From Trichoplax sp. H2 (taxonomy: Eukaryota), in the NCBI GenBank assembly GCA_003344405.1, contig NOWV01000012.1:868001-932000 (forward strand): a stretch of 64,000 nucleotides of DNA, written 5' to 3'. The notes beneath the pieces are model-generated. The model was not told the DNA's origin. It saw only the letters and a program-made list of their open reading frames with translations, and did no database searches. Positions 15,584 to 63,952 of the stretch are shown here, piece by piece; positions within the stretch are counted from its first letter, which is position 1, and each line of letters opens with the position of its first letter. The position numbers were made by a program, and so were the translations under genes.

Positions 15584-16535
15584 ATGGCGAATCAAACTGG
15601 AAATTTTACTATAAAACAAATTTACAGTGGGGAAATTTATGTTTACGCTATCATCAGCGCTATTACTTTTCTTACCAATACTATCATGTTCTGCTTTATT
15701 GTCTTTGAGCGTAAAATGCACATCATGTCTAATTGGATTTTGGCTAGTATGTTTTGCCCTGGTATTATTTACGCTTTGGCTTATTTATTGCCCCCGTTGG
15801 GTTATGTTTGTACCGTGGGATCTACTTGATAGCTACGCTTGCCAAATTTTGCCTTTGTTAGGCTCTGCTTTAATTATAAATTTTAACTTGCATTTGGTAT
15901 TAGTTAGCTTAGATCGTTACTGCTGTATTTTATTTCCCTTTCAATATAATATGCCTCAAGCTTCAGTCATTACTCGATGGGCAACTTTTGCTGTATGGTT
16001 AATCAGCTTCGCCTCGGCTTCCATACCACTGTTCACATTCTTTGTTCCAATACCTGGCATGTGTATTATTCAGCTTAATAGCCGCTCTTTTCATATTTAT
16101 ACCCTCAGTGCTTATATTGCACTTTTTTACGTGCCGATATTTATTTTAGGACTTGTTCACTCTAGAATCCTTTGGACTGTTAGTATCCATACCAAGCGCC
16201 GCCATGAAATTTTTGCACTCAATAACTCTATTCCAACATCTGTTTTACGACGCAATCTGCGTGCTATTACTTACATGGCGATTTTAATTGGACTCTTTTT
16301 GATATTTTGGCTACCAGCTATGATCTACTATGCTATCCTCTTCCCAACAATACATTTAGGTATAAGCATAAAGCAGGTTAGTATAGGAAACATATTGCGC
16401 TATATTTCTTTATCTTATCCAGCAATCAATCCAATTCTTCATGCATATTTTACTCCATGTATACGATCGGAGATCTCTAGAAAATTGGCAAGAGCAACTT
16501 GCAAAACTGAACACAAACGCAATGTATTTGTCTGA
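15584..16535 (+). pseudogene. Intronless class A GPCR split by one extra base (pseudogene or sequencing error)
   Basis: MANQTGNFT, TM1 and TM2 in one frame; TM3 SLDRY, TM5 FYVP, TM6 FWLP and TM7 NPILH in another. Removing one C from CCCCC at 15791-15795 joins them (..YLLP-RWVMF..). Confidence 0.88.
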
Positions 16536-21678: not shown

Positions 21679-23313
21679 TTATTTTGTTTGAAATTGATTA
21701 GCTAATTTACTTAATTTGGCATGTTTGACTCTCGGTGTATGAATGATTGGATTCAATGCAGCATTGGTATAAGTAAATAGGAGAGTAACAGTTTTTATCC
21801 AAGCTGGTATTATCGCCATAGAATTGAGTATAACCGAGACGGTAAGAATAATAGTAAAAGGCGTCCAACAAATTATCATAGAGATAATGTTGCCTCTTAA
21901 AACTTTAACATTAACTAAGATATGCTTTTTGGAGCGAATTGATGCTAATCTATCCAACAGAATTCTTGATCGCCGAAATGCTCTTGCTCTGTAACGATAT
22001 CGGGGCGTTGGTGCCTTATTTCTATTTGAAGAAGGAGATTCATTTTCGGTACAAAGTTGGCCATTATTTCGATGGTTTTTGCCTTCGAAATTATCTATAG
22101 CTGTCGATATCATGGAAGTACCTGTAACGCATCGTGCACGTGAAACTGGAGCCATATCTTTCAAGTCTGTTAACGCAATAGTGGTAGATGCTACCGAAAC
22201 CGGCGTTTTACTATCATCTCGATCTTTAGCAATTGAAGTATTATCGTGATGATATTCAGGCTCAGTTTGAGTATCGGTTTTACTCCTTTCGATATTATTG
22301 TCATCAGGGAATACATTGCTTTCTGGTAGTACCATTTGATTATTTGATGATTTCTTAATTTGATCTACAACTTCATCTGAAGCACTAGTGTCTACTTTCA
22401 AACGGGTACTTCCTCGATGGAGGCGACGACGATGAAATGGAGCGGTTACGGACGAAAATATAGACCAAAAATTAGGACTGTCATGATTTTTGGGGGACTT
22501 GGATGATTTCGAAATTTGATGAGATGGTATTACATTATCATCACATACATAATATGGTTGATCGCTATGTGAGGATCTTAATTCAAGGTGATCCGAAGTG
22601 GAATAACTACCTTTCTGCTTCATCATTTTTCGCAATTGTTGCCTGGCTGTAATAACGTTAGCTTTTATCTTAAGATAACATATTATTAAGATGATCAAGG
22701 GTATTAAGTAAGCTGCTGAATTAATAACAAGCAGTATAACTAGACTGATGGATTGATTACTGGACCACTCATAAAAACAGTTATTACCATTACTAGAATC
22801 GTTTGTTAATCGAATCAGGGGCAAGCTGGCAACCAAAAAAGCAAGCATCCAAATCGTAATTACTGAATAGCAACCATTGCGTTTAGTAAATATGCTTGCA
22901 TACTTCATGGCACGAAGAGAAGCGTAATAACGGTCGAAAGCTACAGCCGCTAGACTCATGTTAGCAGCAATAGTTAAGACCATGTTAATGGCACCAATTA
23001 TTTCGCACCCTGCATGACCAAATGAATGATTAGGTTGCAAAATAGTGTAGAGATTTAAAGGCATAATAGTGCCAGCCTTTATTAAGTTAGCGCTAGCTAA
23101 ATTGCTAACGTGTAATTTAGATACGATGCTTAACGAATGACATTTTCGGAGCGTAGCAAGCATAAAAAGATTACCCAAGAAAGCAATAATTAGAATGATA
23201 GATAGCAAGATAGAAAAGACAATATGAGTAGCCAAGTTGGTATCAGGATAAGATAAATTTTGATTCCCAGTACTGTTAATGTCATCATTCGGGTTATAAG
23301 TAGTTCTTTCCAT
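21679..23313 (-). CDS. Intronless class A orphan GPCR, 544 aa, very long third intracellular loop
   Basis: FLGN (TM1), LASAN (TM2), GCEI..AFDRYY (TM3), IW..LP (TM4), YLIP..CY (TM5), CWTPF (TM6), ALNPIIH (TM7); N-terminal NST and NLS sequons. Confidence 0.95.
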   Translation of the reverse strand: MERTTYNPNDDINSTGNQNLSYPDTNLATHIVFSILLSIILIIAFLGNLFMLATLRKCHSLSIVSKLHVSNLASANLIKAGTIMPLNLYTILQPNHSFGHAGCEIIGAINMVLTIAANMSLAAVAFDRYYASLRAMKYASIFTKRNGCYSVITIWMLAFLVASLPLIRLTNDSSNGNNCFYEWSSNQSISLVILLVINSAAYLIPLIILIICYLKIKANVITARQQLRKMMKQKGSYSTSDHLELRSSHSDQPYYVCDDNVIPSHQISKSSKSPKNHDSPNFWSIFSSVTAPFHRRRLHRGSTRLKVDTSASDEVVDQIKKSSNNQMVLPESNVFPDDNNIERSKTDTQTEPEYHHDNTSIAKDRDDSKTPVSVASTTIALTDLKDMAPVSRARCVTGTSMISTAIDNFEGKNHRNNGQLCTENESPSSNRNKAPTPRYRYRARAFRRSRILLDRLASIRSKKHILVNVKVLRGNIISMIICWTPFTIILTVSVILNSMAIIPAWIKTVTLLFTYTNAALNPIIHTPRVKHAKLSKLANQFQTK

Positions 23314-32154: not shown

Positions 32155-35100
32155 ATGGACGTTTTGGATAGCACTTTTGCTTCTACAATGGATTACACCA
32201 AAGGTAAGACTTTCCTGGACATGATCAATGTTCGTCTTTTACTAACATACAGTCCAGTACAGTACCCGTGTACTCTACAATAGACAGTAAACCAACTGTC
32301 CAAGCTTACGGTCGAAATGTGTCGACTTCATCAGATCAAGCGTTAACGCTTATACTGATCCAATTACGCAATGGATCCATTGGATGGTGAAGTTTAGCAA
32401 TTACGCAATGCATCCATTGGATAGTGAAGTTTAGGATATATATACAATCGCTCTAATCGACAACTGGATTAACTACACTTATTTGCCCATCAAATGGCAT
32501 TAAAATCCATAGTCAAGCAAGTCCAAACTTGAAACTGCTTTTGAAGTATTTCTGCGCGCATGCTTTTCCACCCTTAAGTACAGTAAATAGTAATACAGAA
32601 CTGTCTACCAAGCAGAGTTCATCTTTCCATGTGCATCAATAATTGTATATAGAAGTTAAACAAGTCCAAACTACTTGACAGTTTGTTGTATCAAACAGTG
32701 TTATAATAGACGCATATTGAATTTACCCTTACTATAAGTGCGGCTCTTATTTTGACCAAGATAACAAGGTTGAATTGGGTTGCGCGCATCTTTGCATAAT
32801 TACACGATCAAGCTGGTCAGAAATGAGACGCATAAAGGCTTCTTCCTTCCGTATAATTACATAAGTTGCAGCTACAGTAGTTCAATACGCCGATGATATC
32901 ATTCTGGCTGCATCGATGTGCGTAGAATATTGATATATCCTAGTGGCTACCTAGCCTGCGTATTGAAAAATGTATCCACCAGAAATTCAGGAGCTTAGAT
33001 TTGACATGTTCTGAACAGTGGCTGACACAGAAAGTGATTTACAATGATAACAAGGATGAACTGATGATTGTAGGTACAAACCAGCGATTGCATAATTACA
33101 GCCCTGCCAGACTTGGATAGAAAATCTCCTACACAGTGTGTAGGTGATCGTGTACCACCTACTGATACACCCTTTTAAATGAAATGATTAGCGTATGTAC
33201 TAGCCTTCACAGTCGAGTGTATTCGGTCTCTTATAATTGCTTTATATCTATCGATACAGTGCTATACTGAAATTACCTTTAGCGTAATGATGTACAAATA
33301 AAATACGACAGCTATCTTTTTTTATCTTGATGATCCATTTAGCTCAATAACGATCTAGAAAGGCGTCGCCTTGCTCAGTAACATGTGGTTAGGACTTTGC
33401 AAACTGTGTAGTAAACGCATCTTCTATACGCATATGTATATTTCAAAGATGTACGCTAGAAGGGTCCCGGGAGTAGTTATGGAAGACCAAATATGTAAAA
33501 TCATGCAGACTGAGAAATTGTATTTGTACTCGTATAACTTCTAATGCAGATTAGACCAGTTTTACACTCGACACTTCCTGATTGGTTAGGTACGCTTAAA
33601 TTGTGATACGTGGGCTTCGATATCTTGAGTATCTAATTTTTGAAATTATTCTCGGTTGAATAAACTTGTTGAAAATGGAACTAAATATTAAGCTAGATAA
33701 ATCGTAATAATGCTACAGTATATACTTATAAGTGGCTCTTCTAGTCCCAACTGTCGCTCTGGAGATCTGCTAGCAATTTTATTATCAACGTTCTCTCTTA
33801 TTTTACACTATAGAGTAACAGGGTAAATAGATTTTTAGTGGTGTATTATATCCGCCTTATCTATACCAAGCGAGTCATCATTGCTGCAGATTAGTATAAC
33901 TTTTTAGCGTGTTCCATAGACGATGTACTCTGAGCATACGTAAGCGTATAGTAAACATCGCGCAATCAAGTAACTACCTACAGTATACTGTACAAGCATA
34001 AATACAGTATTAGTATGCATTATTATTACTTTGAGGTATTTTTGGTTTCCCCTTGACATTCTTGGAATTGACAAAACTTTGGCAGTAATATTAGTTTTGA
34101 TGTTGAAACTGAGAGTTGCTTTAATCTGCATCAGGGTATATTCGATGCAAATTTACAATTAACAACAAGATCAATTTAATCATCAATAGCGTAAGAAAAA
34201 ATGATAGTTCTATTGAAGTTCGAGGCCTTAATTTCGGTTGAATTGGCAGGCAATTACCATCTGTAATGCTCTGATAAATGACTTGTGTATAGTATACTAT
34301 AGAAGTACACATAATCGGTATGATTGAATTAAGCTATAAACTGCTATGGTGTTATATCGAATTTTGTACAAGCTTTTGGTATTGTTGTAAACACTATACA
34401 GCAATATCATTGTAATAGCATCCAATTAGATAGCTAACCAATTATTCACATGGAGTTATTTTCCTCTTTCATAAGGACCTAACGATGTAAAGAATTCGAA
34501 CAATCTTGTTATTGGTGTGCTGTTAGCAATATCATCTAGTATTCTAATTGGAAGTAGTTTTATAATAAAGAAGAAAGGTTTATTAAGAGTATCAAGAGGC
34601 GGTGATTCTTCGAGCAGAGCAGGTAGGCTCATTTATTCACGTTGATGTTAGTATTTGTTTATTTAGGGAGATAATAAATATTCTATAATATGGTATTTTT
34701 AGGGAGCGGTGGTTATGGCTATTTGAAAGATTGGGTATGGTGGGCTGGTTTCATTACAAGTATGTACTTTAGCTAATGTATATCATAAACGTAAGGATAC
34801 AAAAAATATATATATCTTCTATATTATCTTACAGTGGGCACTGGAGAATTAGCGAACTTTATCGCTTATGCCTTTGCTCCAGCAAGCTTAGTAACTCCTC
34901 TTGGCGCTTTGAGCGTACTATTTGCGTAAGTATCATTAAAACGGGCATATATCATACGTTTTGCATTGATCTTATTTTTTACTGTATACAATTTTTTAGG
35001 GCTATTTTAGCATCATATCTGTTAAACGAAAATCTAAATATTTGTGGTAAAATTGGCTGCTTTGTTGCTATTCTTGGATCGACTATGATTGTTATTCACG

Positions 35101-35826
35101 CTCCTGCTGAAGCTGAAGTCGATTCATTTGAGGTTTTAACGAAAATGCTGGCGAGTCCAGGTATGTTAATTATGCTTTGATTCAAATTTCATGTCCATTA
35201 AATAGTACTATATTTTGTCGACAGGATTTATCGTATACGTCTGCATTGTTGTGCTAATGTTTGGAATCTTGGTCTTCATACTGGCTCCTCGATACGGACG
35301 AAAAAATATGATAATTTATATTGCAACTTGTTCTGTTGTTGGATCTCTAACGGTGATGGCATGCAAGGGCGTCGGCATTGGAATCAAACAGACCATTGGT
35401 GGTCAAAGCCAATTAGGAAATTGGGTGTTTTGGCTTCTTGCGCTATCAGTGGTATTTTGTATTGTGATCCAAATGAATTACTTAAACAAAGCATTGGACA
35501 TCTTCAATACCGCTGTAGTTAGTCCTGTGTACTATGTTCTATTTACTACTTGTACTATCGTTGCATCAGCTATTTTGTTTAAGGAATGGGCAAGTTTAGG
35601 GGCTAAAGATGCAGTCGGTTCTGTTTGTGGTTTCTTAACTATCATTGTTGGTGTGTTTCTACTCCATGCTTTTAAGGATCTTAAACTCTCTTACAAACAT
35701 TTACCTAGTGCTATAAAAAAGGACGATCGTAGACTTCCGAACGGTGAAGGTGAAAAAATGATTGACGACTGGGATGGTAATTTAATATCTAATTCTAATA
35801 GTGGTGATGGCGATGCGGAATTTTAA
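32155..35826 (+). CDS. NIPA2: NIPA family magnesium transporter (NIPA2-like)
   Basis: Exons 34476-34622 ([22 protein letters not shown]), ~34703-34759 ([14 protein letters not shown]), ~34835-34925 ([25 protein letters not shown]), ~35000-35160, 35225-35826 ([14 protein letters not shown]). First exon 32155-32203 ([16 protein letters not shown]) is phase-compatible with a GTAAG donor but less certain. Confidence 0.93.
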
Positions 35827-37555
35827 TGTTTAATAATGGTATGGTAAAGGCTAATGATCGTAAAATGTTGTATATAACCGCTGCCTGAGACCTGTAAAGA
35901 GATTAATGGTATAATACAACATTCCCGTTATTTTATCATATTGCATTTATGTTGTCGTGATTTTAGTACTGATCAAAGATCACCAAATTAATTAGGTTTA
36001 TTATCAATATATTACCGCTTAGGTCTTGGCGTTATTGTCGTGACACTAATTCTTATTTCATTACTGGCGATTTCTATATTATTCCATGTTCTGTTACTGT
36101 ATTACAATCTAGGAGTTAGTGGTACACTTTTCTTCATCTGTTCTGCTTTGTATTACTGCATTATGTTGGTTCCTTATATATATATATATGATTTTCGTCC
36201 TGATAACAAAGTGTAGTCTTGTCAGGTACGCTAGAGTCATCTACAAGATTTTCTTTTTATTTCATCATACATACATACCAGATACTTCTCATATATACCG
36301 TAACTATTGCGTTTAATTAACTTAAAATCTGATTACTATAAATGTTGTACCATTTCCGTTGTATGAAAATCCTTTCGTAATTTTATTTTATTTCCAAGAC
36401 GTAGGGGTATTGTAGATTCTTATCGATAGTAATATACAATTTTTATTTGCGATTTGAAGAAAGAATTGTATTGTTTTATAATGTCTAGATCTATCTGTCC
36501 TTAGAACATTTTCAGCATATTAAGTTTTATTTATAAATCTTTAGCGTTCACTTAAGATGAGATTGAGTCATTTTTTGCAATTGGGCTACAGAATATCTGT
36601 GCTGCTTGTCCAATAGTAACGTCATATATGGATTAAGATGTTGCTATTACCTTATCGGAATAATAAATACAGTCCGCGTGTCCGCTTAGAAAGAAAATTG
36701 CAAAGTATGATGCAATTTGTACTATAGAGTATGTCGATGGGTGAAATGATTGCATGATTGATTTATATTAGAAGATAGCTACCTTGGATTTGTAAAATAT
36801 TCTGGATATTTACACGTATATGAGAAGATTGATTTAAGTAAAGTAGACTGCTAATTACGTGTATTATGGAGATCAAATTGATTCTCAGATAGGCTGCTGT
36901 TTAGTGATCGTTTGGTATGATGCTTCAGAACTGCGTAAAATACGGTAGTGGATTACAGTACCACCTCCATTTACTGTACTGGACGCATATTTGATGACTA
37001 ATATAAATCTTAAAATGCGTTTTAGTAGTTTGTGTGAATTAATTAATTTTAAAGAGTTGGGTTTGAGCTGCCGTAAAGTAAATAAATGACTAATTACCGC
37101 TGTTGACTATCAATTTATCATCAACGGAGTTGATTGCTTTTATACTTTGCAGTGGATGACAATACCCTAACGTTTGGATTAGTTTGGATCGATTGAAACT
37201 TTTATCTTTTAACATGGTTATCCACCGTACAATACAGACACGCTGATCTTTCGTTTTTATCCAGGCGTGGCATTTATTTTACGTCAGGTTGGATGACTAT
37301 CAAGTTTAATGGATTACTGTGTGTAGTTGATTAATTGGAAATTGTAATCCGTCAATCGATCACTTCTGAACCAGGCTTTGCCTCTGCAGATTCTATACAG
37401 TATATATATTATTAACGTCTTACATTACTGGATTTGCGGCAGCAGCAGGTTAATCACGCTAGACAAGTTTTACGTTGAATACATAACAGACTTGGCGTAC
37501 GAAGCGTGGATGAAAAATAATAAAAACGACAGAATTTGATTTTGTTTCACCGTCG

Positions 37556-38010
37556 TTATATGCTTGATGTCGATGCTGAAGGAACTAACTTGGTCATGGA
37601 TTGCTAATACAGTATAAGCGTATCAAATATACTTGCAGTAGAAATTGTGGAACAGTAGACATAGGCACTGACATTAGTGCAATGTAAAGGAAGAGATTGT
37701 TCGAGTTTATATACTTGATGTCGATGCTGAAGGAACTAACTTGGTCATGGATTGCTAATACAGTATAAGCGTATCAAATATACTTGCAGTAGAAATTGTA
37801 GAACAGAAGACATAGGCACTGACATTAGTGCAATGTAAAGGAAGAGATTGTTCGAGTTTATATACTTGATGTCGATGCTGAAGGAACTAACTTGGTCATG
37901 GATTGCTAATACAGTATAAGCGTATTAAATAGACGTATAGTAGAAATTGTAGAACAGTAGACATAGGCACTGACATTAGTGCAATGTAAAGGAAGAGATT
38001 GTGCGAGTTT
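37556..38010. repeat. 151 bp tandem repeat x3
   Basis: CTTGATGTCGATGCTGAAGG at 37563, 37714 and 37865. Confidence 0.95.
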
Positions 38011-38044
38011 TAGGGGCGGCGTGAATGTGTGCTGTAAACAATGC

Positions 38045-39110
38045 AGTAGCGAAACAACAACTGACTACCGTCTCCTTTTCCACTGTACCATACTGCTGCA
38101 AGTTAGACCTGAGAAAGGTTTGGTTCAATCAATAACTTTTAGATTACCGACAACAGCGAAACAACAAGAGACTACTGGCTCCTTTTCTGCTACCATACTG
38201 CTGTAAGTCCATAGCACAGATTACTGACAACAGCGAAACAACAACTGGCTCCTTTTCCATTGTACAATACTGCTGTTAATTTATAGCGTAGATTACCGGC
38301 AACATCGGAACAACAGCTGACTCATGTGTACAATATTGCTGTAGTAAGTCCATCGCACAGCGAAACAACAACTGACTACAGGCTCCATTTCTGTTACTAT
38401 ACTGCTGTAAATCCATAGCATCGATTACCGACAAGAGGGAAACAACTGATTACTGGTTCCTTTGTACAATATTGCTGTAAGTGCCTCGCACAGCGAAACA
38501 ACAACTGACTACAGGCTCCATTTCTGTTACTATACTGCTGTAAATCCATAGCATCGATTACCGACAAGAGGGAAACAACTGACTACTGGCTCCATTTCTG
38601 TTACTATACTGCTGTAAGTCCATAGCATCGATTACCGACTACAGGGAAACAACTGATTACTGGCTCCTTTGTACAATATTGCTGTAAGTGCCTCGCACAG
38701 CGAAACCACAACTGACTACTGGCTCCATTTCTGTTACTATACTGCTGTAAATCCATAGCATGGATTACCGACTACAGGGAAACAACTGACTACTGGTTCC
38801 TTTGTACAATATTGCTGTAAGTCCATAGCATGGATTACCGACTACAGCGAAACAACTGATTACTGGCTCCTTTGTACAATATTGCTGTAAGTGCCTCGCA
38901 CAGCGAAACAACAACTGACTACTGGCTCCATTTCTGTTACTATACTGATGTAAATCCATAGCATCGATTACCGACTACAGGGAAACAACTGATTACTGGC
39001 TCCTTTGTACAATATTGCTGTAAGTAAGTGCATCCCACAGCGAAATAACAACCGACTACTGGCTCCATTGCAGAATATTGCTGTAAATCCATAGCATCGA
39101 TTTTGACCGA
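38045..39110. repeat. Minisatellite of two related ~55-75 bp monomer types
   Basis: Type A CAGCGAAACAACAACTGACTAC.GGCTCCATTTCTGTTACTATACTGCTGTAAATCCATAGCATCGATTACCGA and type B GGGAAACAACTGATTACTGGCTCCTTTGTACAATATTGCTGTAAGTGCCTCGCA mostly alternate. Confidence 0.93.
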
Positions 39111-41118
39111 CTTGGAAAGCCGTCAACGGTAACGTACTGTTAGTGTACAGTAATGATCATGATGAGGGACACCTAGCGCTGCAGGATAATTTATTGTACT
39201 AGAACTTTGGTAATCATACGTTTACTGTCACGCAATTCATCATCTACACATCCCTGATATAGTTAGTCTTCCATTCTGCATGATAGCAAATAGAATTGGA
39301 AGAGTCTTGGGGCACAAAAATGGAGGCATTACCGGCTGCTAGATGGCAAACACACTGACTGTCGGTAATGATGGTCACAGGGCGGTAGACAGTCCATACA
39401 GTACAGTGTAGAGTGTACAGTGTAGAGTAGGTTTGTATTCGGTACCGGTAGTGTTGACACTCAGTGAACACTACCGGTAGGGGGAGTAGGGCGTCGCGGT
39501 CGAGTAGACGGATACACCGATACTGTGCACAGACACGAGTAGAGTCTCTAGTCACTGCATAGTAAAAGTTCAAGTCTGACCTAGCACACAGTCACACGTT
39601 CTCGATCCTTATGCCACGTGCTGACAACTTGTGCTGCTAAGTGGGTTGATGGCGGTTGAGTAGAAGGATCTCCATCAAGATGGACTTAAATCGATCATCA
39701 ATATTGTTGTAAAGCGATATTCTACATATATTATTGGCTTTCAACCAGCATCTGTCGGCGATTTTTCAAGTCTTGTTTGAAGTTGATGAAGGACAGCACT
39801 GTGCTATTATGAGAACTGTTGGCTGATCAGACACCAACGATCGAAAATACAACTCTACCACATTTCAAGCTTGGATGCATCAGCATTGAGCAGCTACTGG
39901 ATGCTTGATCTTCCACATTGATGGTCTTCTAGACACACGTTATTGCTGCATGCAAAAGATACTTCAGGATATCGACAAGAAATAGTTTCCATCCTGTAGA
40001 ATGACCAATTGATTACTGTTGTGTTTTATTTTCGACCTCGTTGTTCTTTCAAGTCCAATCTGTCTTTTACGACTCCAATCCCAATCTCTCCTTGCATTTC
40101 TATTTCATCTCCGATCTACAATCATCCTTGATTGTGGCGCTGGGTCATACTGTCGTCTTTTACTGTCGCTGTCGTATCCATTAAGTTGGCTGCACGGAAA
40201 TTCACCTTTCCTACAAAGAATCATCTTGCTAGCTGGCTAGCAACACGTGTACTGCTGTCAACTTGAGTGCAACACACGAGACATTCTGTGCTATGCCATT
40301 TTCTGAAATGTAAATTGATGACTACATTGCAATACTCGTATGTCATATCTATATACAGTACGTCAAACAGATCCGCAACATTTTTTTCCTACAACTAGTG
40401 TATCTATACTGTATACTGTAAACACTTGGCTAACGCCAAGTCGATTTCAAAGCTATTTGAAACGCTTAGGCCAGGACACGATAATGTCCTAATATTCTAG
40501 TCCCTGAGAGAAAATTCATATTGACCAACACCATAATTGGTCATTTAATATTACTATCTTCCTTCAAAACATGCTAAATTTATGCATGACTTTATGTTGA
40601 AGAAATTGGGCCAGACTCTTCATAATCTCTTCATAATCCAAAGGGAACTCCGCCTACACTTTGCTCAGCGAGTTGTTATCGAATTCAAATCACTGCAATT
40701 AAAGCGTTCAATTGACTCACATCTTGTAATACACTGTGTATTCTCCAACAGTAAAGAAATCCTATCAAGATTTTTGACTTATCAAGTCATCATCAAATTG
40801 CAATCAAGAACTTTATTAACGAAAAAATACTGTACATCAATACGGTAAAATTGAATCATTTTTAAAGTACTAAATCGACTCTTGAGAAGGGAACTAAAAT
40901 ATATGGTCAGGCTATTGGAAGGGACTTTTGAAAAAGCAGGAGAATTTTGAACATTACAATATTACAGCCTTAACAATCTAAGGCGTGCTGATGAAGTTAG
41001 TAGATAAGTAATTGTATTAACAGTGATTGAACTTATTTGCTACCAATAATAATTTGGGGATATTTTACGCAATAATCTTCAAGACTGCAAGTGTTGACTG
41101 ATTCTTCTTTCCATCAGA

Positions 41119-42603
41119 ATGGATATGACACTGAACACAGATATTGATGTTGTGGATCAATTCGTTATATTCTCCTTTTTCTCCCAGGATGAATTGAATT
41201 CTTTTACCACTTTGCAGCAAAGTCACTTTAATGGTGCTTTTCCTAATACACGACCTATTCAGAATATTGTTGGCAGCGATAGTGACATATCTACTACCAA
41301 AGACACACCTGAAAAGATACAATCCACTTCCAGTTCGCAAGATTTCACGCCAAAGTCATCGCCTACAAATAGGGATGAAGTTGAAGTAAAAAGAAATTGC
41401 CAGACTGAGGTGACTTCAACGGAACCAGATGAACCAATTCAGTCATTCACGTCCGATGCTCTCTCAACAGATTCCGTAAATCACCATAATAAAGTTGATG
41501 CATTACATAGTTGTAGCAGAAAATCGAAAAAAGCAAGCAAACGCAAATTGCAAGCTCACTTAAGTGACGATGATACAAGTAATACAGCTTCTAGTTCGGT
41601 TACAAACTCCACAAATAATATACATGATGTTCGCAGGAGAAAATATCGTGAGAATGAATTCAAGAAAAAACAAGACCGTCCAAATGCTTTACTTGGAACA
41701 TGTATGCAATCTATACCGGACGTCAAGTTTCCTGTACCCAAATCTCCCCCTATTAAACGTTGGTGTGTTACTTGCCCTGAAGAGCAATGGTTACACGAAC
41801 GTCGAAAGGATAGCAATATACGACTACGCTTCCAAGCGGATTACAGGCATAACGATAAAGATGGTAACCCTGCTCGGAACAATAAAACTAAGATTGAACA
41901 ATCTGACCAGTCCGACTTGAAAAAGGCCGGAAATAACCGTGGACAAACTCTTGAGCTTCACGGTAAAGGTCAACATAATTGGCGCTTAGATCGGACTGAT
42001 CGTAGGGCAGGTTGTAAAGTTAAAATAATACATGACAATCGTACGAGAGGTAGCAATGAAATTCTGAATATATCTGATCGCCAATATCTCGCTACGCCTA
42101 CTTCTCTGGATGAAATAACCGACTTCGATGGTGATAGTAGTAACGTGAATGATTCATTTTATTACTCAAATTCTTCATCAGCTGAAGAAGGTGAAGTCTC
42201 TGTTGATGATAAAACGTTGAAATTTCATACGCCTCAAATGATTGCAATGAAATCACTATATCATGAAAATACTGACATTATTCATACGAGTGATACCGAT
42301 GCCAGTGACTGGAATAGGAAGGTAACTCACAATAAGAAAGAACGCGAAAGACGCTCAAAACAGAAAGTTCAGTTCTTTCGCTTACAACAGTCTCACCCTG
42401 ATTTAGTTCGATTAGAAAAATGCCCCAAGATAAAAATACTTCAATCTGCTATAAATCTTATTCATAATTTGTACGATGAGGAGCAAAGGTTGGTTAACAT
42501 CAAAATGATTTTGCGAGATAAAAATGGTAGATTAAAGAATAAACTACAGACTTTACGGCAAGCAGTTGATATGGGCAGGAAAGAAAGATATGGAATACGT
42601 TGA
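41119..42603 (+). CDS. Divergent Myc-family bHLH-leucine zipper transcription factor, 494 aa ORF
   Basis: C-terminal RKVTHNKKERERR..FFRLQQSHPDL...KCPKIKILQSA..EEQRL..L..LKNKLQTL parallels the Myc bHLH-ZIP; Ser/acidic low-complexity N-terminal region. Confidence 0.85.
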   Translation: MDMTLNTDIDVVDQFVIFSFFSQDELNSFTTLQQSHFNGAFPNTRPIQNIVGSDSDISTTKDTPEKIQSTSSSQDFTPKSSPTNRDEVEVKRNCQTEVTSTEPDEPIQSFTSDALSTDSVNHHNKVDALHSCSRKSKKASKRKLQAHLSDDDTSNTASSSVTNSTNNIHDVRRRKYRENEFKKKQDRPNALLGTCMQSIPDVKFPVPKSPPIKRWCVTCPEEQWLHERRKDSNIRLRFQADYRHNDKDGNPARNNKTKIEQSDQSDLKKAGNNRGQTLELHGKGQHNWRLDRTDRRAGCKVKIIHDNRTRGSNEILNISDRQYLATPTSLDEITDFDGDSSNVNDSFYYSNSSSAEEGEVSVDDKTLKFHTPQMIAMKSLYHENTDIIHTSDTDASDWNRKVTHNKKERERRSKQKVQFFRLQQSHPDLVRLEKCPKIKILQSAINLIHNLYDEEQRLVNIKMILRDKNGRLKNKLQTLRQAVDMGRKERYGIR

Positions 42604-43470
42604 ATTTGTAAAATTTTAATCCCGTCGATTTTAGACTATCAAGCAACGACAATTAATTAAATATCCTTAGGTAAAAGAAAGAGGATCGATTTTAACGTCT
42701 AGGCTATACATTTTCATTATGCTAATAATTTCATGGATAATGTTATGACTTTTACTACTGTGCATTGCCCCTTTTCCTTCGTCTTAGCCGTCAGTAAAGA
42801 CATCCGAAATCTGTACATATTAAATGGTTAAATAGTGCTAATAGGAAGTGCTCTTGATTAGCAGTTATAATCTAATTTGTATTTATACATGCTTATTACT
42901 GTACAGTCGAATGGCTTAATGAATATATACTCTATTGCTGCGATTTGGCATTTTATGATATAAAGACTACGATCAATGTCTAGACATTGAAACAACAGTG
43001 ACATTTGAACGTAAATTGGTATTCTGTAAATATTATAGCGGCAACATTGTGCGAACTTTTATATCTGATACTTGCGTTTGTTGTTTAAGAAATTTTTTTA
43101 TTCTAATGCACTTAATCCTTATCTAGACTGACTGAGCTGAGAAGTAAGCATTTTAAACGTATTTTTTTATTGAACTTTGGCCACTGAAGCTATTTTTCCC
43201 TACATCTCTAATTCTTGTCCTATTTTACTGAAATCCCTTGTTTTATGAACGATTTTGTATAAATGCTTTCATAATTTATTAAAAGAAGACTAAATTGGTT
43301 ATCCGTAATCTGTTGAATCAAATTCCTTGATCGAGGGAGGGTCTTGATCGCTTCGCTACCGCAACCAGTAGCCAACGTAGAATGCACACTGTCCATAACC
43401 AAAGAGATTATAAGTTAATTTAAATAACTTTATTTTCCTGATTCCTTGCTGATATCGAGCTATATCATCA

Positions 43471-44113
43471 TCTTTAAATTGTGGATTATTTGATATGAAC
43501 GTTAGGACATAAAGTAAGGATTTTCAACTGATCCATTTTTACATTCGATCTTTAAATTGTGAATTATTTGATATGAACGTTAGGACATAAACTAAGGATT
43601 TTCAACTGATCCATTTTTACATTCGATCTTTAAATTGTGAATTATTTGATATGAACGTTAGGACATAAACTAAGGATTTTCAACCGATCCATTTTTACAT
43701 TCGATCTTTAAATTGTGAATTATTTGATATGAACGTTAGGACATAAACTAAGGATTTTCAACCGATCCATTTTTACATTCGATCTTTAAATTGTGAATTA
43801 TTTGATATGAACGTTAGGACATAAACTAAGGATTTTCAACTGATCCATTCTTACATTCGATCTTTAAATTGTGAATTATTTGATATGAAAGTTAGGACAT
43901 AAACTAAGGATTTTCAACTGATCCTTGCATTCGATCTTTAAATTGTGAATTATTTGATATGAATGTTAGGACATCAAACTAAAGATTTTCAACTGATCCA
44001 TTCTTACATTGGTGCTATAAATTGTGAATTATTTGATATGAAAGTTAGGACATAAACTAAGGATTTTCAACTGATCCTTGCATTCGATCTTTAAATTGTG
44101 AATTATTTGATAT
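43471..44113. repeat. 78 bp tandem satellite, about 8 copies
   Basis: TCTTTAAATTGTG.ATTATTTGATATG at 43471, 43549, 43627, 43705, 43783, 43861 and onward; later units carry small indels. Confidence 0.97.
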
Positions 44114-45470
44114 AAACATTCATCATGTTGGTACCGCGTGCGCTCATATTTAACGGTATACTGTATTTGCGTTAAAAGTAATGACACTGAATTATAGCAC
44201 GTTAGTCTGTTGAGGATGATAATCCGTCTCCTAGCCATTGATAGGTTTCATGGCCTACATGATAGCTCCATTCACCGTTGTGTGCCTGCACACTCACTCA
44301 GTGTAGATTGCATTACAGAGCAACTGCATGTCTGCATCGAATCGATTGGATATCCCTAGAGGTTCAATTTTTAAGCTTGAAAATATGTTGCATACGAATG
44401 AAGTTGTCGAGACTAGGATATTGCAACTTTAACAGTCGTTCAATTGGAAGAGTTGATCCTATTTTCAATCTGCTTTCAATTTCAACCCTTGACCTGTTAT
44501 GGTCATCTTTGCGGGATATCACTTCGTCAGTCGTCTATTGAACTCCATAACTCCCAGCTGATCAATGCTGTATACAGTAGGTTATTTTTAATGAATGATC
44601 GTGATTCATAGTCTAGTGATGGATGAAAAATCAAGATCATTTCGTTGAGACGATTTTTGTGACTTGCCATATTCTACTGAACCCTAACTCTACATCACAT
44701 TATTGTATTGCTTTCAAATTAGCTCAAACGCCAAGCCAAATAAATATTCAGCATCAACTGGATTTGCAAACCTCTTCCCAACTTCCACGTCTACCTGTCT
44801 GTCTGTCCATAGCATCTTTCAGTGACAGTTCGGACTGTTCCGTACCGTGCCTAGTACTGAACCGCTCCAGTCCAGGCTAGAGCCAATCCACGTGACGATC
44901 ATACGCAAGGTACAGTACGGCTTATATATCAACGACGTCTAGGATCGACCGATTGCAGAAGTCGTTGGTAGTGCCTATGGAATTCTATTGGATCGACTCG
45001 TGTCCAGGACACTAGGGTCTCAATCAATTGCTCAAGCTGAGGTGACGTAGCACTTGAGCTATATAGATGATAACGGTTTGAACCGAACCGAACCGAACCG
45101 GTCTCAGGTCTATAATAAATTGAGCCTCCAAGAGAGATGTTGCAAGTGGGCTAAATTGATGGTTAACTAGGCGACCACTTTGAAACTAAGGCATAAATGA
45201 CTGGATTAACTTGTAAACCAGTTTATGGCTAAAACTTGATCAGTTAAATAGCCGCATTGAGATCAATGTCGATCACTAGGTGTTTTATGCAGATTTGCAA
45301 ACCAGCTGATACATACTTTTTGCACCAAGGCTTTCTACTAAAAGTACAGGATGTGATATAGTGACTATCATACCGTAAGTCGTCTATCCTACTCGACAGT
45401 GATACTCATACACGCTGCAATGACTATAGGACAGTATGGCCAGCAGTGGACTGGAGTCGGCTTGGGAGCA

Positions 45471-45520: not shown

Positions 45521-46564
45521 GATGAGCTCGATGAGTGGATTGGGTGAAATTGCAACTGAGCGTTAATCGGCAAACAGGATGAAGGTCTTTGACCGCCCCA
45601 AGCCAGTGTTTACATCACCTTCACTGTGGCGTGTGCATTGCTAGTCAAAATCATGACCATCATTTTTGCCTGATTGGAATTGATTTAAAGACAGCGTTGA
45701 TGATGGCGGGGAGTCTCTGATGGATGATCATGACTGACATGTAGGCAAGATCTTATAGGAAATTCAGGAATAAATAGAGAAGAAAAAGACGCGTAGATGA
45801 TACTTGGTCATTGATTGATAGGGATATGCCATAAAAGATTGCAATTTTTCTACGCCTGTTTGTAGAGATTATTTTATTTTGATCCAATAGTTGAGTGGAT
45901 TGCATTATCGTCATCATTATTACGGTGTTTTATGCCTATAGTCATTTGGATCGATCATCAGGATCCCATGATCAACCATTTTAGGATACAAGAACTTTTG
46001 CCTGTTGTTACTTTAAAATTTTGCAACGGACTAAGAGAGAGAGAGAGAGAAAGACGACCCCAACTGCAGTAAATTAGATCGCTTACAATTGACTTTTCCA
46101 ACTTGATTAGATCTCGGGGAAAGGGTAAAAGTTCCTTTTTTTTTTGGGATTTTATTTTGAATGGATTCATCTACTAACTGTTTACAACTACGAACGCAAT
46201 TGGATTATTGAAAGCCGTTCCAAACCGAATATTCATTTGATATCAGGACGATCAAACGTTTAACCTTAATTCATGACAAGCCAAAATACACACCTAAATT
46301 AGAGCCAAATAGCGTCAAAGGACGAATCTTTCTATTGAATTGGTGGCTGGGTAAAAGAAGACGTCAACAACTACTGTACTTTCCTTATTTTAACCGAATT
46401 ATTCCTAGTGAACAATTAAAATACTCATTCCTACTTGAACGCATACACTCTACTAACTTACCAAGTGGTTAGTCATTCGATCCATTTGGACCATTCATAT
46501 TGGGATACGCCTAGCAAATCATTATTGCCAGTACCCTACTGTACATGCACAAAAAGACAACATT

Positions 46565-47197
46565 ATGGCGAATGACAAAGCTGCTATATTACTCAAAGTT
46601 ATCCTATTAGGGGACGGTGGTGTTGGCAAATCATCTTTAATGACTCGATTTATACAAGATAAATTCGATGAAAATTCATACCACACTATTGGCGTCGAAT
46701 TTCTGTCCAAAAACATCAATGTCAATGGCATTACTTACACTATCCAAATTTGGGATACAGCTGGTCAAGAACGCTATCGCAGTTTGCGTACACCATTTTA
46801 CCGTGGTGCTGATTGTTGTTTATTAACCTTTGCCTTAGACAATCGTAATAGTTTTGACAATTTAGCTACCTGGCGTAAAGAATTTATATTCTATGCTGAT
46901 GTTAACGATCCTGAAACATTTCCATTTGTAGTCCTTGGTAATAAAGTAGATATACAACATGAACAGCGACAAATTCATCGTAGTGAAGCTGAAGAATGGT
47001 GCTACAATAATTATCAAATGCCTTACTTAGAGACGAGTGCTAAAGATTCAACAAATGTTGAAGTTGCTTTTGTCAAAGCAATTGAAAAAGCTGTTAAATT
47101 AGAAGAAAAAGTAGCTATTAAAACTGATTTTAACAGTACAATTGATCTAACCAAATGCAAAGGTCGGAACAACAAAAATAACAGTTGTTGTACATAA
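46565..47197 (+). CDS. RAB9: Rab9 small GTPase, intronless CDS
   Basis: GDGGVGKS, HTIGVEFL, WDTAGQERYRSLRTPFYRGADCCLLTF, FIFYADV..PETFPFVVLGNKVD, ETSAK, terminal CC prenylation motif. Confidence 0.96.
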   Translation: MANDKAAILLKVILLGDGGVGKSSLMTRFIQDKFDENSYHTIGVEFLSKNINVNGITYTIQIWDTAGQERYRSLRTPFYRGADCCLLTFALDNRNSFDNLATWRKEFIFYADVNDPETFPFVVLGNKVDIQHEQRQIHRSEAEEWCYNNYQMPYLETSAKDSTNVEVAFVKAIEKAVKLEEKVAIKTDFNSTIDLTKCKGRNNKNNSCCT

Positions 47198-61589: not shown

Positions 61590-62284
61590 GTACAGTACGT
61601 ACAGTACAGTACCGTACTGTAAGCTACAGTGTATGATACTGTACTAGACGTGGTTCACAAGTACTGTACACTGTACACTGTACAGTACAATAAAGTAGCT
61701 GACCTGTCTATCATTGTGCCGATACAGTCAGTGCTACTGTACTGTACGCTATACTGTACTGTACTGTATAGCACAGTGCTGTAAGAAAATTCGCACTGAT
61801 CTGAATTTTCTTACAGTGTACAGTACTAGACGTGGTTCACAAGTACAGTACTGTATTGTACCATTAATATTTGATGATTACAGTACAGTCTTAACGTCAA
61901 CTGTAATTCAAGTGACATGGAATATCTTCATGACGTCATGCAGCACCTGGATCTTGGACTGACAGAGTGACAGTACGGTCCTCAAATGCTTCGCTGGTAG
62001 AACAACTGTACCAGTACACGACAGACCCTGTATGAACTACGGTGGCTCACAAAGCCACCGTAATGAACTGTACAGTATACAGTACTGTAATCAGGTCTAT
62101 ACTGTACTGTACAGTACACAGCTCGATAGGTTACCATGGAACGGATCCAGACTCGTCCACACGGCGATCCATCATCAACATCAAATGCGAGATTCAACTT
62201 TGCAACACTGCAGCAAATGGAAATCATAATACTTCGAATCGACTAGCCTTTGATTCAAAGTATTCGTAATAAGTAGTCATCAAA

Positions 62285-63952
62285 ATGGATTGCAATGTGC
62301 AAAACAATGAAAGGATAAAGTTAAGCAAGGCACAGAAGAAAGCACTACGAAAACAGCAACGTGCCAAGCGAATCCTTGATCGACATAATGTTTTGAATGA
62401 GTTTAAAGTCAGTGATCAACCTTCTAGGCATTTACTCATCAGCAATGGAGGATTGGGTTGTGGTATAACTCGAACAATCTTAACATCGGTGTTTGGCCGA
62501 TATGGACAAATTACTAATATCATCATGTTACCTGATAAACCGTTCTCTGTCTTGTCTTATCAAACAGTAACCGATGCAAAGCAAGCATATGATAATATCC
62601 ATGCCATTGAATTGATCACCTTTTGTGATACCGATGTCAAGTACTTGGTAAAATCGGGTATTAAGGCGTTTATTCTCAATTACTTGGAAGATTATTTTTG
62701 CGAAACCAATAAAGACTCTAACTTAGGCTATCCTGAAGGATTGTTATTAATTCAAAATTATGTCAGTGAGCAAGAAGAAGATGAATTATTGCAAAGTATA
62801 GGTTGGTACACCAATCACGGTCAAGCTTCTCATGATACTCATCCGTGTCAAACCGTGCAATCCGATCGGGAATCAATGCAGCGACGCCTTAAGCATCGTC
62901 ATGTAAAACACTATGGCTACGAATTTCGATATGATACAAATACAGTGGATAAAGATAAACCCTTACATGCCACAATACCAAGTAAATGTAGATATATCTG
63001 TCAACGTATGACAGACGACGGTTATATCCAACATCAACCTGATCAACTAACAGTGAATGAATACATGCCTGGCCAAGGTATTTGCCAATAGCGATACTGT
63101 AGTTGTTTCGTTAAGTGGACAGCTGATAATAATAATATAATATACAATGATACAATAAATTTATGTATGTGCTGAGCAGGGATACCCCCTCATATTGATA
63201 CTCATTCTGCGTTCCAAGACCAGATCGTTTCACTATCGCTGCTGTCTCAGGTACCCATAATTAGGATATGTTCTAATTATTCTTCATAACCATATTATTT
63301 TACTTCCATTCACCAATTGACCATATTAGTAGAGTAGCCACTGACGTCCTCAATGATTACTGCAAAAATATTAGATTGTGATGGACTTTCGGCATCCGGA
63401 TGGAACTCGAATATCGATTAATTTGCCTAGACGCAGCCTATTGGTGATGTCAGGCGAATGTAGGTACTTATGGAGCCATGGGTAAGAAGAATTCCTTTGT
63501 TCATTTGATGATAGAAAGAGCCTTGCATCACATACTATTTCATACGATAATTCTACAAATTTCTCAAGCCTAAGCTGAAAATCAATAGGACACGTTCATG
63601 TAACATAATGCTGTTTGCTATTGGAAATATTGATTTAGAATTACACCTCGAAAATATGATGTGGTTTGTGATGACAATGACAACAATAGCAACATAACGT
63701 TATTGGAGAGATCCCGAAGGGTTTCGTTTACTTTTCGAAAAATTAGACATTCTCCTTGTAATTGTAGTAAGTAATGGGCTATTCGCTATATTCTATATTT
63801 CGACCTTTGATCTGTAGGGTTGTTAAGTATCTTCGAGAGTTATAAGTATAGTTTTTATTGGTACGTTATTTTCCAATATAATACTAACTTTGGACGTCAA
63901 TTACGATAGAGTATCCTAATTCGTGTGACACACAGCTAAATCTCCTTTCAAA
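62285..63952 (+). CDS. ALKBH8: ALKBH8 tRNA wobble-uridine modifying enzyme (RRM plus AlkB domain), continues past right edge
   Basis: Exons 62285-63077, 63180-63250, 63375-63481, 63639-63766, 63910-63952: [91 protein letters not shown]. Confidence 0.96.

Follow-up and report, generated by a model that had tools for sequence, protein, structure and literature searches.

Does the placozoan Trichoplax sp. H2 carry, next to a canonical Myc, a second Myc that has kept the DNA-binding domain of the family and dropped its regulatory boxes? The question is raised by one locus in a 64,000-nucleotide stretch of AT-rich eukaryotic DNA (assembly GCA_003344405.1, contig NOWV01000012.1, positions 868,001 to 932,000 of the forward strand; G+C about 28–43%). 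This stretch is referred to below as the window, and nucleotide positions are counted from its first letter. The gene of interest lies at 41119..42603 on the plus strand. A first description made from the letters alone, the sequence-only reading, had taken it for a derived Myc paralog with no clear Myc boxes I and II. Here, we describe the gene as a real, expressed second Myc-type gene in which the Myc DNA-binding and dimerization domain is kept and boxes I and II are absent. It is very probably a divergent Myc paralog of placozoans (orthogroup OG_8074) with two exons, a spliced transcript, a box-poor N-terminus, and a C-terminal domain presumed to form an E-box-binding dimer with Max.

Identity and transcript structure of the gene

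The stop-to-stop open reading frame (ORF) spans 41098–42603 on the plus strand, with an ATG at 41119 and a TGA at 42601–42603. The coding sequence (CDS; 41119..42603, +) encodes 494 residues, or 496 if an ATG at 40991 is used. In a search of 5.8 billion proteins, the product was 100% identical over 494 residues to the “uncharacterized protein” TRIADDRAFT_56571 of Trichoplax adhaerens. The supplement of PMC3782479 shows UniRef50_B3RYI5, a T. adhaerens protein of 494 residues with the same N-terminus; since N-terminus and length agree, the window protein is UniProt B3RYI5. The same search returned two unnamed orthologs, P0003 (482 residues, 46% identity) and P0004 (473 residues, 45% identity). 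Together with the window protein, these are the three placozoan sequences on which all statements about invariance are based. The ORF is intact in all three (about 473–494 residues), with the same start region and sharply bounded conserved islands.

To describe the transcript, contigs from four public runs were compared with positions 33000–45000 of the window. Three of the runs (X5, X13, and X6, from three studies) are RNA-like, carrying the four GT..AG joints of the adjoining NIPA gene together with a joint from 40995 to 41118. The fourth run, X2, is DNA-like, with even depth and no GT..AG joint, and the joint from 40995 to 41118 is absent there. Because this joint occurs in RNA-like contigs of three studies, the AG before the ATG is a used acceptor. 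The suggestion that the ORF begins just behind an acceptor, with upstream exons possible, thus proved correct, and one upstream exon is present in the RNA-derived contigs.

The gene is transcribed and spliced and consists of two exons. Exon 1 is a non-coding 5' leader with a minimum extent of 40003..40995 (+); record 27 of X6 joins 40003–40995 to 41118–42514, and contig record 21 of X5 stops at 40995. The intron (40996..41117, +) is 122 nucleotides long, of the GT..AG type, and has a polypyrimidine tract ahead of the acceptor. Exon 2 (41118..43520, +; contig record 22 of X5) holds the entire annotated CDS and about 0.9 kb of 3' untranslated region; its 3' end is approximate and enters a tandem array at 43470–44117. 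The c-myc gene is built alike, with a non-coding first exon and a start codon at the very start of the next exon.

In the spliced frame, a TAA at 40979–40981 is followed by Gly-Val-Leu, the ATG at 40991, Lys, and the annotated Met, and the last five bases of exon 1 (ATGAA) allow the ORF to start two codons earlier. Since the in-frame TAA lies four codons before the ATG at 40991, the upstream exon adds at most Met-Lys. The sequence-only reading had allowed that upstream exons might supply boxes I and II; the non-coding upstream exon does not.

The leader, of at least 993 nucleotides, contains 10 upstream ATGs in 40003–40990, ahead of the ATG at 40991. RNA contigs also cover 39403–40358, so that the leader may extend further 5', with the reservation that one contig is no proof of one single transcript. 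The region 39403–40995 is transcribed over 1.0–1.6 kb and has no long ORF; it could be a leader gated by upstream ORFs or belong to a distinct non-coding transcript. The transcribed region upstream of the intron also contains two CACGTG E-boxes (39615 and 40244); the window as a whole has 8 such sites versus 7.4 expected, that is, at chance. An Rfam scan of 36000–45000 matched no family. An “opposite strands” joint between 40548 and 40900 in one X13 contig was treated as an assembly artefact.

[quoted passage not shown]

By similarity, the C-terminal domain is a Myc-type basic helix-loop-helix with a leucine zipper (bHLH-LZ). The basic region and helix-loop-helix occupy residues 400–451 (42316..42471, +), where Pfam HLH matches with an E-value of 1.5e-7 (31.5 bits versus a cutoff of 20.7), and the leucine zipper occupies residues 451–479 (42469..42555, +). 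The motif HNKKERERR lies inside the basic region, within residues 400–413. H404, E408, and R412 of RKVTHNKKERERRS, at E-box contact positions, align with the corresponding His, Glu, and Arg of c-Myc and are invariant in the placozoan sequences, in agreement with what the sequence-only reading had said of these contacts. The loop, KCPKIKIL (residues 434–441), follows the Myc-type pattern K.PK..IL. The five heptad-spaced leucines at the d positions of the zipper (451, 458, 465, 472, and 479) are invariant, as are all of its a positions (I448, E455, K462, N469, and L476), among which E455 is the counterpart of a c-Myc core Glu. Conservation is high throughout the domain, with 80–85% of columns invariant in the HLH region and 67% over residues 391–482. 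AlphaFold2 (AF2), run on the three-sequence alignment, gave the zipper a predicted local distance difference test score (pLDDT) of 85–96. Directly before the basic region lies an acidic Ser/Thr cluster, SDTDASD (residues 391–397; 42289..42309, +), the counterpart of the SD(S/T)E(D/E) cluster of canonical Mycs; its S391, D392, T393, D394, S396, and D397 are invariant and align with “sSDsEd” of the canonical Myc profile and with comparable segments among the collected proteins.

Database searches place this domain with Myc. A search of PDB chains returned eight distinct sequences at E ≤ 1, namely four of c-Myc (E 2.2e-11 to 3e-5, 26–47 bits), three of Max (E 0.12–0.77, 12–15 bits), and one of the unrelated PRDM11; no Mad/Mxd chain appeared at this threshold. 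The view that the loop and the five-Leu zipper are closer to Myc than to Max or Mxd is borne out by these values. When 1.84 billion representatives were scanned exhaustively with HMMER, 93 matches were obtained at E ≤ 1e-3. Only the window protein itself and P0004 matched over their full length; all other matches cover the C-terminal part only and begin after residue ~320, except that of P0086 (from residue 251). When the longer matches (37 of the 93) were scanned with Pfam, 24 matched Myc_N at E ≤ 1e-3, of which 23 exceeded the cutoff; the remaining 13 showed HLH, alone or together with Myc-LZ or a bHLH_INO4 match below the cutoff. Max and Mxd have loop signatures of their own, against which the bHLH-LZ loops of 95 collected proteins were read; the basic-region pattern was fitted by 93 of these proteins, and the loops were Myc-type, with no Max- or Mxd-type loop among them. 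An hhalign comparison between a profile of the three placozoan proteins and 19 canonical Mycs aligned residues 387–483 (probability 98.85, E 4.2e-17), and the InterPro table of PMC3782479 lists PANTHER PTHR11514 on residues 349–482 (8.8e-16).

Absence of the canonical Myc boxes

As judged by sequence comparison, the first ~390 residues are without Myc boxes 0, I, II, IIIa, and IV. Pfam Myc_N gave no match at E ≤ 1 in the window protein and none at E ≤ 0.01 in the two orthologs. The box I and box II patterns PTPP.SP and [DE]C[ML]W are absent from the protein and from every six-frame piece of the 64-kb window. A full-length Myc hidden Markov model, built from 19 canonical proteins and run with filters off, matched this ORF only among 2886 six-frame pieces of the window, and hhalign against the 19 canonical Mycs aligned nothing within the N-terminal 386 residues. 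The Myc_N search and the motif scans of protein and window thus confirm the earlier remark that neither LPTPPLSP (box I) nor DCMW (box II) is present.

One candidate for box I and its Fbw7 degron, TPKSSP (residues 77–82, which fits TPxxSP), was considered and rejected; its alignment to “tpPlSP” had a low posterior, and it is absent in both orthologs. Because TPKSSP is present in T. adhaerens alone, a function as an Fbw7 degron is unlikely. According to PMC3782479, equivalents of T58 and S62 are conserved in B3RYI5; since the orthologs lack TPKSSP, the alignment lends this claim no support beyond T. adhaerens. The ESM Atlas clusters nearest to residues 1–390 were Myc_N-bearing, at 0.83, 0.82, and 0.81; these values are under 0.9, the level from which a match counts as more than a lead, and were not used as evidence.

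Conserved islands in the N-terminal region

The first ~390 residues are predicted to be disordered. The residues S, T, N, D, E, K, R, and Q make up 62% of positions 1–390, and the AF2 model from the three-sequence alignment has a mean pLDDT of 42, with values below 50 at residues 1–17, 30–166, and 184–403 and nothing confident ahead of residue 400. Only 31% of columns over residues 1–390 are invariant, yet the conserved positions form sharp islands.

The first island is a block at residues 6–34 (41134..41220, +), which contains DIDVV at residues 8–12 (41140–41154). N6, T7, D8, I9, D10, and V11 and the stretch F15–F20 are invariant, and position 12 is Val or Ile. The pattern [DE]IDV[VI] occurred in 0.115% of 20000 shuffles of residues 1–390. 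In Myc, IDVV is the WDR5-binding core of box IIIb (PMC10279693, PMC6911241), and changes of its Ile and two Val residues to Glu abolish WDR5 binding (PMC10279693, PMC6911241; also PMC11308778). Among the collected Myc-family proteins of at least 290 residues, 99 of 114 have [DE][IVL]DV[VIT], including 20 of the 29 that lack the crude box I and box II patterns; some of these 29 are partial models, and the window protein is counted twice among them, as P0001 and P0002. As no other Myc box persists as often as IDVV in the collected set, its retention in the window protein is plausible. We infer that DIDV[V/I] is the retained core of Myc box IIIb and a putative WDR5-binding motif. Its conservation in the orthologs strengthens the likeness to the EEIDVV box drawn in the sequence-only reading. 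The same likeness had been drawn for SSSAEEGEVSV (residues 352–362) and is not supported; the segment is present, but in the orthologs only E357 is invariant.

Further along, a basic patch, RKSKKASKRKLQA (residues 134–146; 41518..41556, +), has invariant R134, K135, K137, K138, K141, K143, L144, Q145, and A146 and looks like a candidate nuclear localization signal. A further island is a placozoan-specific central block at residues 169–240 (41623..41838, +), with its peak at PIKRWCVTCPE.Q.L..RRK.SNIRLRFQA; within residues 201–240, 60–75% of columns are invariant versus 31% across residues 1–390. This block had no match outside placozoans in the HMMER scan, the hhalign comparison, or a profile search, and the profile search for relatives of the N-terminus, made with the three placozoan sequences, retrieved only the same three. 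Another conserved island, K.LKFH, lies at residues 365–370.

A separate canonical myc gene in Trichoplax

Whether the gene is a paralog depends on whether Trichoplax has another myc, which the sequence-only reading had proposed to look for. A protein search seeded by a cnidarian-like Myc fragment found P0135, a protein of 321 residues named “Transcriptional regulator Myc-1 [Trichoplax sp. H2]”. Its sequence equals that of T. adhaerens B3S238 as printed in the supplement of PMC3782479 and corresponds to TriadG57914. P0135 has Pfam Myc_N (E 6.6e-16, 59.4 bits) and HLH and carries PTPPLSP, DCMW, and EEEIDVVTVE; for B3S238, the InterPro table and alignment of PMC3782479 give Myc_N, PRINTS LEUZIPPRMYC, PTPPLSP, DCMW, and EEEIDVV. 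The window gene is accordingly not the sole canonical myc.

The supplement of PMC10580291 assigns the two genes to different orthogroups, both represented by a single gene per species in four placozoans: OG_5050, “MYC/MYCL/MYCN” (TriadG57914, with Myc_N/HLH), and OG_8074, “like:MYC/MYCL/MYCN” (TriadG56571, which is the window gene). Because a separate canonical myc is found at another locus, the window gene is a derived paralog, as had been supposed. Since OG_8074 has one member in each of them, the paralog is older than the split of the sampled placozoan lineages.

The two genes also differ in co-expression. TriadG56571 belongs to the module Tadh.darkolivegreen (131 genes), with a membership of 0.554; top members of this module include DNA polymerase alpha, primase 2, TAF1C, EMG1, ERCC6L, and CEP57, and the module annotation sheet has no entry for it (PMC10580291). 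The same source places canonical Myc in Tadh.darkgrey (gc007a, “multiple” cell types). The members of Tadh.darkolivegreen faintly hint that the window gene is expressed in proliferating cells.

Phylogenetic position

An IQ-TREE tree was built from 49 bHLH-LZ segments (named and divergent representatives) out of 173 collected proteins, all Myc-type and without Max, Mxd, or Mlx outgroups. The three placozoan Myc-like proteins unite with support of 98/97, and canonical Trichoplax Myc falls within an unresolved cluster of canonical proteins. The placozoan clade stands beside four long unnamed HLH-only rows, a grouping that is probably long-branch attraction. These rows are P0072, P0090, P0053, and P0086, Myc-like proteins of 328–545 residues in which the patterns for box I, box II, and IDVV are all missing; they may represent additional Myc paralogs without boxes. 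A tree in which the paralog and canonical Trichoplax Myc were forced into one clade was 13.6 log-likelihood units worse and was not rejected by the approximately unbiased (AU) test (p-AU 0.074), which was chosen after the tree had been seen. Because its branches are long and outgroups are lacking, the tree is unable to date the duplication. Placement outside the Myc clade had been named as a finding that would speak against a Myc paralog. By similarity, the protein groups with Myc, and in a published transcription factor phylogeny the gene bears the label “like:MYC/MYCL/MYCN” (PMC10580291); the 49-row tree, without outgroups, leaves formal membership of the clade unsettled.

Dimerization and proposed mode of action

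In c-Myc, box II provides the route to TRRAP, and box I provides the Fbw7 degron route. By analogy, a protein without these boxes would lose both routes. To judge from its sequence, the placozoan protein would dimerize, most likely with Max, and in this form bind E-boxes of the CACGTG type. E455, K462, and N469, polar residues at a positions, would resemble the partner-selecting core of c-Myc; charged and polar residues in the zipper core point to a selected partner, most simply Max, as for Hydra Myc3. The N-terminal DIDV[V/I] would tether the protein to WDR5 on chromatin. The protein would then be either a competitor or an alternative factor tethered through WDR5, and it may, as the sequence-only reading proposed, modulate the Myc/Max network.

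Possible origin of the paralog

The position of the N-terminal motif suggests how such a gene may have arisen. I9 lies about nine codons past the splice acceptor, so that the protein starts right behind the intron, at DIDVV. In human MYC, exon 3 starts near codon 253, and IDVV would lie similarly close to the acceptor. The residues I262, V264, and V265 of the WDR5-binding motif (WBM) of human c-MYC are encoded in exon 3 (PMC6911241). Two collected Myc-type models, P0134 (Clavelina lepadiformis) and P0145, have neither box I nor box II and begin with ~15 hydrophobic or odd residues directly before EEEIDVVTVEK; they look like gene models begun at the last coding exon and extended into the end of the intron. 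From the exon 3 position of the WBM, the closeness of I9 to the acceptor, and the starts of P0134 and P0145, we infer an origin from the last exon with the intron kept. The paralog would have begun as a copy matching the last coding exon of an ancestral myc, from box IIIb to the zipper; the intron ahead of the copied exon would have been kept, and a new start codon would have arisen at the junction. The copy would then have diverged fast and gained the placozoan-specific central block. A fuller version of this proposal, in which the box IIIb-to-zipper exon was duplicated with its intron, the product keeps only WDR5 tethering and E-box/Max binding of the ancestral functions, and the central block, gained in place of boxes 0–II, serves as effector, is put forward tentatively and at low probability.

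Alternative explanations

Several observations weigh against the reading of the gene as a divergent, Max-binding Myc paralog or against parts of it. Pfam Myc-LZ (PF02344) matches residues 454–481 with 19.7 bits, below its cutoff of 24.3, and the bHLH-LZ is only 32% identical to that of canonical Trichoplax Myc and 40% identical to the c-Myc representative (canonical Trichoplax Myc and c-Myc share 58%). The stem of the placozoan clade measures 1.81 changes per column, next to the four long HLH-only rows. K468 and N469, which align to R423 and R424 of c-Myc, make this pair half Max-like. IDVV is a motif of four residues that was found after being looked for; the co-expression membership is modest, in a module without annotation; a homodimer model passed, leaving room for independence from Max; and the exon 3 origin leans partly on the position of the human exon 2/3 boundary. 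Some of these points would suit a protein of another bHLH-LZ family (Mxd, Mnt, Max, Mlx, Mga, USF, or TFE) with a zipper that is Myc-like by coincidence, given the sub-cutoff Myc-LZ match, the unresolved placement in a tree without outgroups, and the label of only “like” MYC in the 2023 atlas (PMC10580291). Several invertebrate Mycs with Myc_N, however, likewise have no Pfam Myc-LZ match, the best PDB matches are c-Myc rather than Max, with no Mad, and all inspected non-placozoan library matches are Myc-type. The PTHR11514 match in PMC3782479 and the alignment of the acidic SD.D cluster before the basic region with canonical Mycs point the same way, and we consider it very unlikely that the protein is not a Myc. 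The fast evolution seen in the stem length and in the 31% of invariant columns over residues 1–390 might also be expected of a decaying or non-functional duplicate. This explanation is countered by the intact ORF and conserved islands in three placozoan sequences, by one ortholog per species in four placozoans and the assignment to a co-expression module (PMC10580291), and by a spliced transcript in RNA-derived assemblies of three studies, which together leave it hardly any probability.

The remaining alternatives concern the partner and the origin. The protein could be a Max-independent factor that homodimerizes on E-boxes as a passive competitor or repressor outside the Max network. A homodimer model of residues 395–494 scored 0.68 versus 0.24 for the best of three controls, with runs that agree in at least 98% of contacts, a partner pLDDT of 86, and symmetric d–d and a–a zipper contacts. 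Among proteins with solved structures, 21 of 30 one-chain pairs and none of 23 single chains attained the mark applied to this score; for eukaryotes the count was 17 of 29, and only 1 of the 7 without an older solved relative attained it. As bHLH-LZ dimers have already been solved and the model may reproduce them, the pass speaks for a dimer-competent fold and not for a choice of partner. N469 at an a position resembles the Asn of Max that is tied to homodimerization, R423 and R424 of c-Myc being tied to pairing with Max (PMC3177325). On the other hand, the like charges that E455/E455' and K462/K462' would bring together at core a positions should disfavor a homodimer, as in c-Myc, and Hydra Myc3, the nearest characterized analogue, dimerizes with Max (PMC10177328); a Max-independent factor thus seems unlikely to us. 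As to origin, the intronless CDS would also fit a retrogene, in which the mRNA of canonical myc was retroposed, the N-terminal half was lost by divergence or truncation, and the intron in the 5' untranslated region was gained later, the position of IDVV next to the intron being coincidental; intronless retroposed Myc copies are known, such as MYCL2 (PMC3782479). A retrocopy would, however, be expected to begin as a full-length coding sequence, and this protein begins no more than nine codons from a used acceptor, exactly at the box IIIb-like motif. Since the WBM residues of human c-MYC are in exon 3 (PMC6911241) and the tunicate-type partial models P0134 and P0145 begin as if an intron preceded EEEIDVV, we regard a retrogene origin as doubtful.

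Neighboring features in the window

Tandem arrays flank the gene at 37556–38010 (151 bp x 3) and 38174–39102 (about 70/133/207 bp x up to 12), and the array downstream of the gene at 43470–44117 consists of a 78-bp unit repeated 8.4 times. Because the depth of the DNA-like run X2 is 2- to 4-fold higher at the arrays, their units are repeated elsewhere in the genome; the RNA contigs break at them.

Upstream lies a highly expressed gene for a NIPA-type magnesium transporter (34473–36690, +; Pfam Mg_trans_NIPA, E 4.9e-58), with four GT..AG mini-introns of 64–80 nucleotides in the three RNA-type runs and a loose 5' end at 34473; its 5' exon is outside the stretch compared with the contigs. Downstream of the Myc-like gene, a single ORF encodes a Ras-family small GTPase (46457–47194, +; Pfam Ras, E 3e-54). 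Two ORFs encode rhodopsin-family G protein-coupled receptors, one at 15615–16532 (+; 7tm_1, E 1.2e-13) and one at 21682–23313 (−; 7tm_1, E 1.9e-36, match residues 47–524); the long insert within the 7tm_1 match of the latter is probably a large intracellular loop. An ORF at 62273–63088 (+) matches 2OG-Fe(II) oxygenase weakly (26.7 bits, short of the cutoff of 31.2).

Discussion

The closest known counterpart of the placozoan protein is Hydra Myc3, which also has a Myc-specific bHLH-LZ, lacks boxes I and II, occurs beside canonical Myc paralogs, and has an N-terminus that is unstructured by AlphaFold (PMC10177328). In vitro, the Hydra protein binds both Max and the E-box (PMC10177328), and the same model is proposed, by analogy, for the placozoan protein. 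The resemblance stops at the N-terminus: Hydra Myc3 has 197 residues and a short N-terminus without any box, whereas the placozoan protein has ~390 N-terminal residues with conserved islands and DIDVV, and thus does not belong to a class defined by a short N-terminus without all Myc boxes. The Hydra gene has three exons and the placozoan gene two, one of them coding. In addition, the placozoan bHLH-LZ is much more diverged, as its 40% identity to the c-Myc representative illustrates.

Compared with canonical Myc of the same genome (P0135), the window protein shares [DE]IDVV, the acidic Ser cluster, and the H-E-R basic region. It differs in the absence of the Myc_N, PTPPLSP, and DCMW found in P0135, in a bHLH-LZ of only 32% identity, and in its co-expression module (darkolivegreen versus darkgrey; PMC10580291). 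With vertebrate c-, N-, and L-Myc, it shares the IDVV core of box IIIb and a bHLH-LZ with the K.PK..IL loop and five hydrophobic positions in heptad spacing; it differs in lacking Myc boxes 0, I, II, IIIa, and IV, in K468/N469 for R423/R424, in a Myc-LZ under the Pfam cutoff, and in a CDS contained in one exon. A role shared with Mxd and Mnt, in which the protein competes for Max and E-boxes and does not recruit Myc co-activators, may exist; there is no likeness in sequence, as the PDB search returned no Mad chain at E ≤ 1.

Both the gene and its lack of boxes have already been catalogued. Myc was recovered in Trichoplax by McFerrin and Atchley in 2011 (PMC3177325). Mahani et al. (2013; PMC3782479) treated B3RYI5 and B3S238 as Myc-like and stated in their discussion that both “almost completely lack” the N-terminal signatures, which is at odds with their own supplements, in which B3S238 does have Myc_N and the canonical boxes. 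The window gene is listed as “like:MYC” in the supplement of Najle et al. (2023; PMC10580291), and Lechable et al. (2023; PMC10177328) established that cnidarians have paralogs deficient in Myc boxes, and announced a study across all metazoans. The idea of a box-deficient Myc is therefore not new, having been raised for the same protein (PMC3782479) and for Hydra Myc3 (PMC10177328). A full-text literature search for TRIADDRAFT_56571 gave no match, and a search on Myc, placozoa, Myc boxes, and paralog had no functional study among the matches listed. The present analysis adds that exon 1 is non-coding, that the protein begins at IDVV immediately after the intron, and that there is a placozoan-specific central block.

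Placozoans, among the simplest animals, have a Myc set of two members, one canonical and one stripped-down, and stripped-down paralogs are also found in cnidarians. A conserved and expressed Myc that is without the TRRAP and degron boxes and seemingly has the WDR5 motif amounts to a natural dissection of box functions. If the paralog did arise from the last exon only, WDR5-assisted chromatin recruitment would be an ancient Myc module, separable from the rest of the protein, and the corresponding deletion experiment would already have been done by nature. The gene could further reveal what use early animals made of competition for Max.

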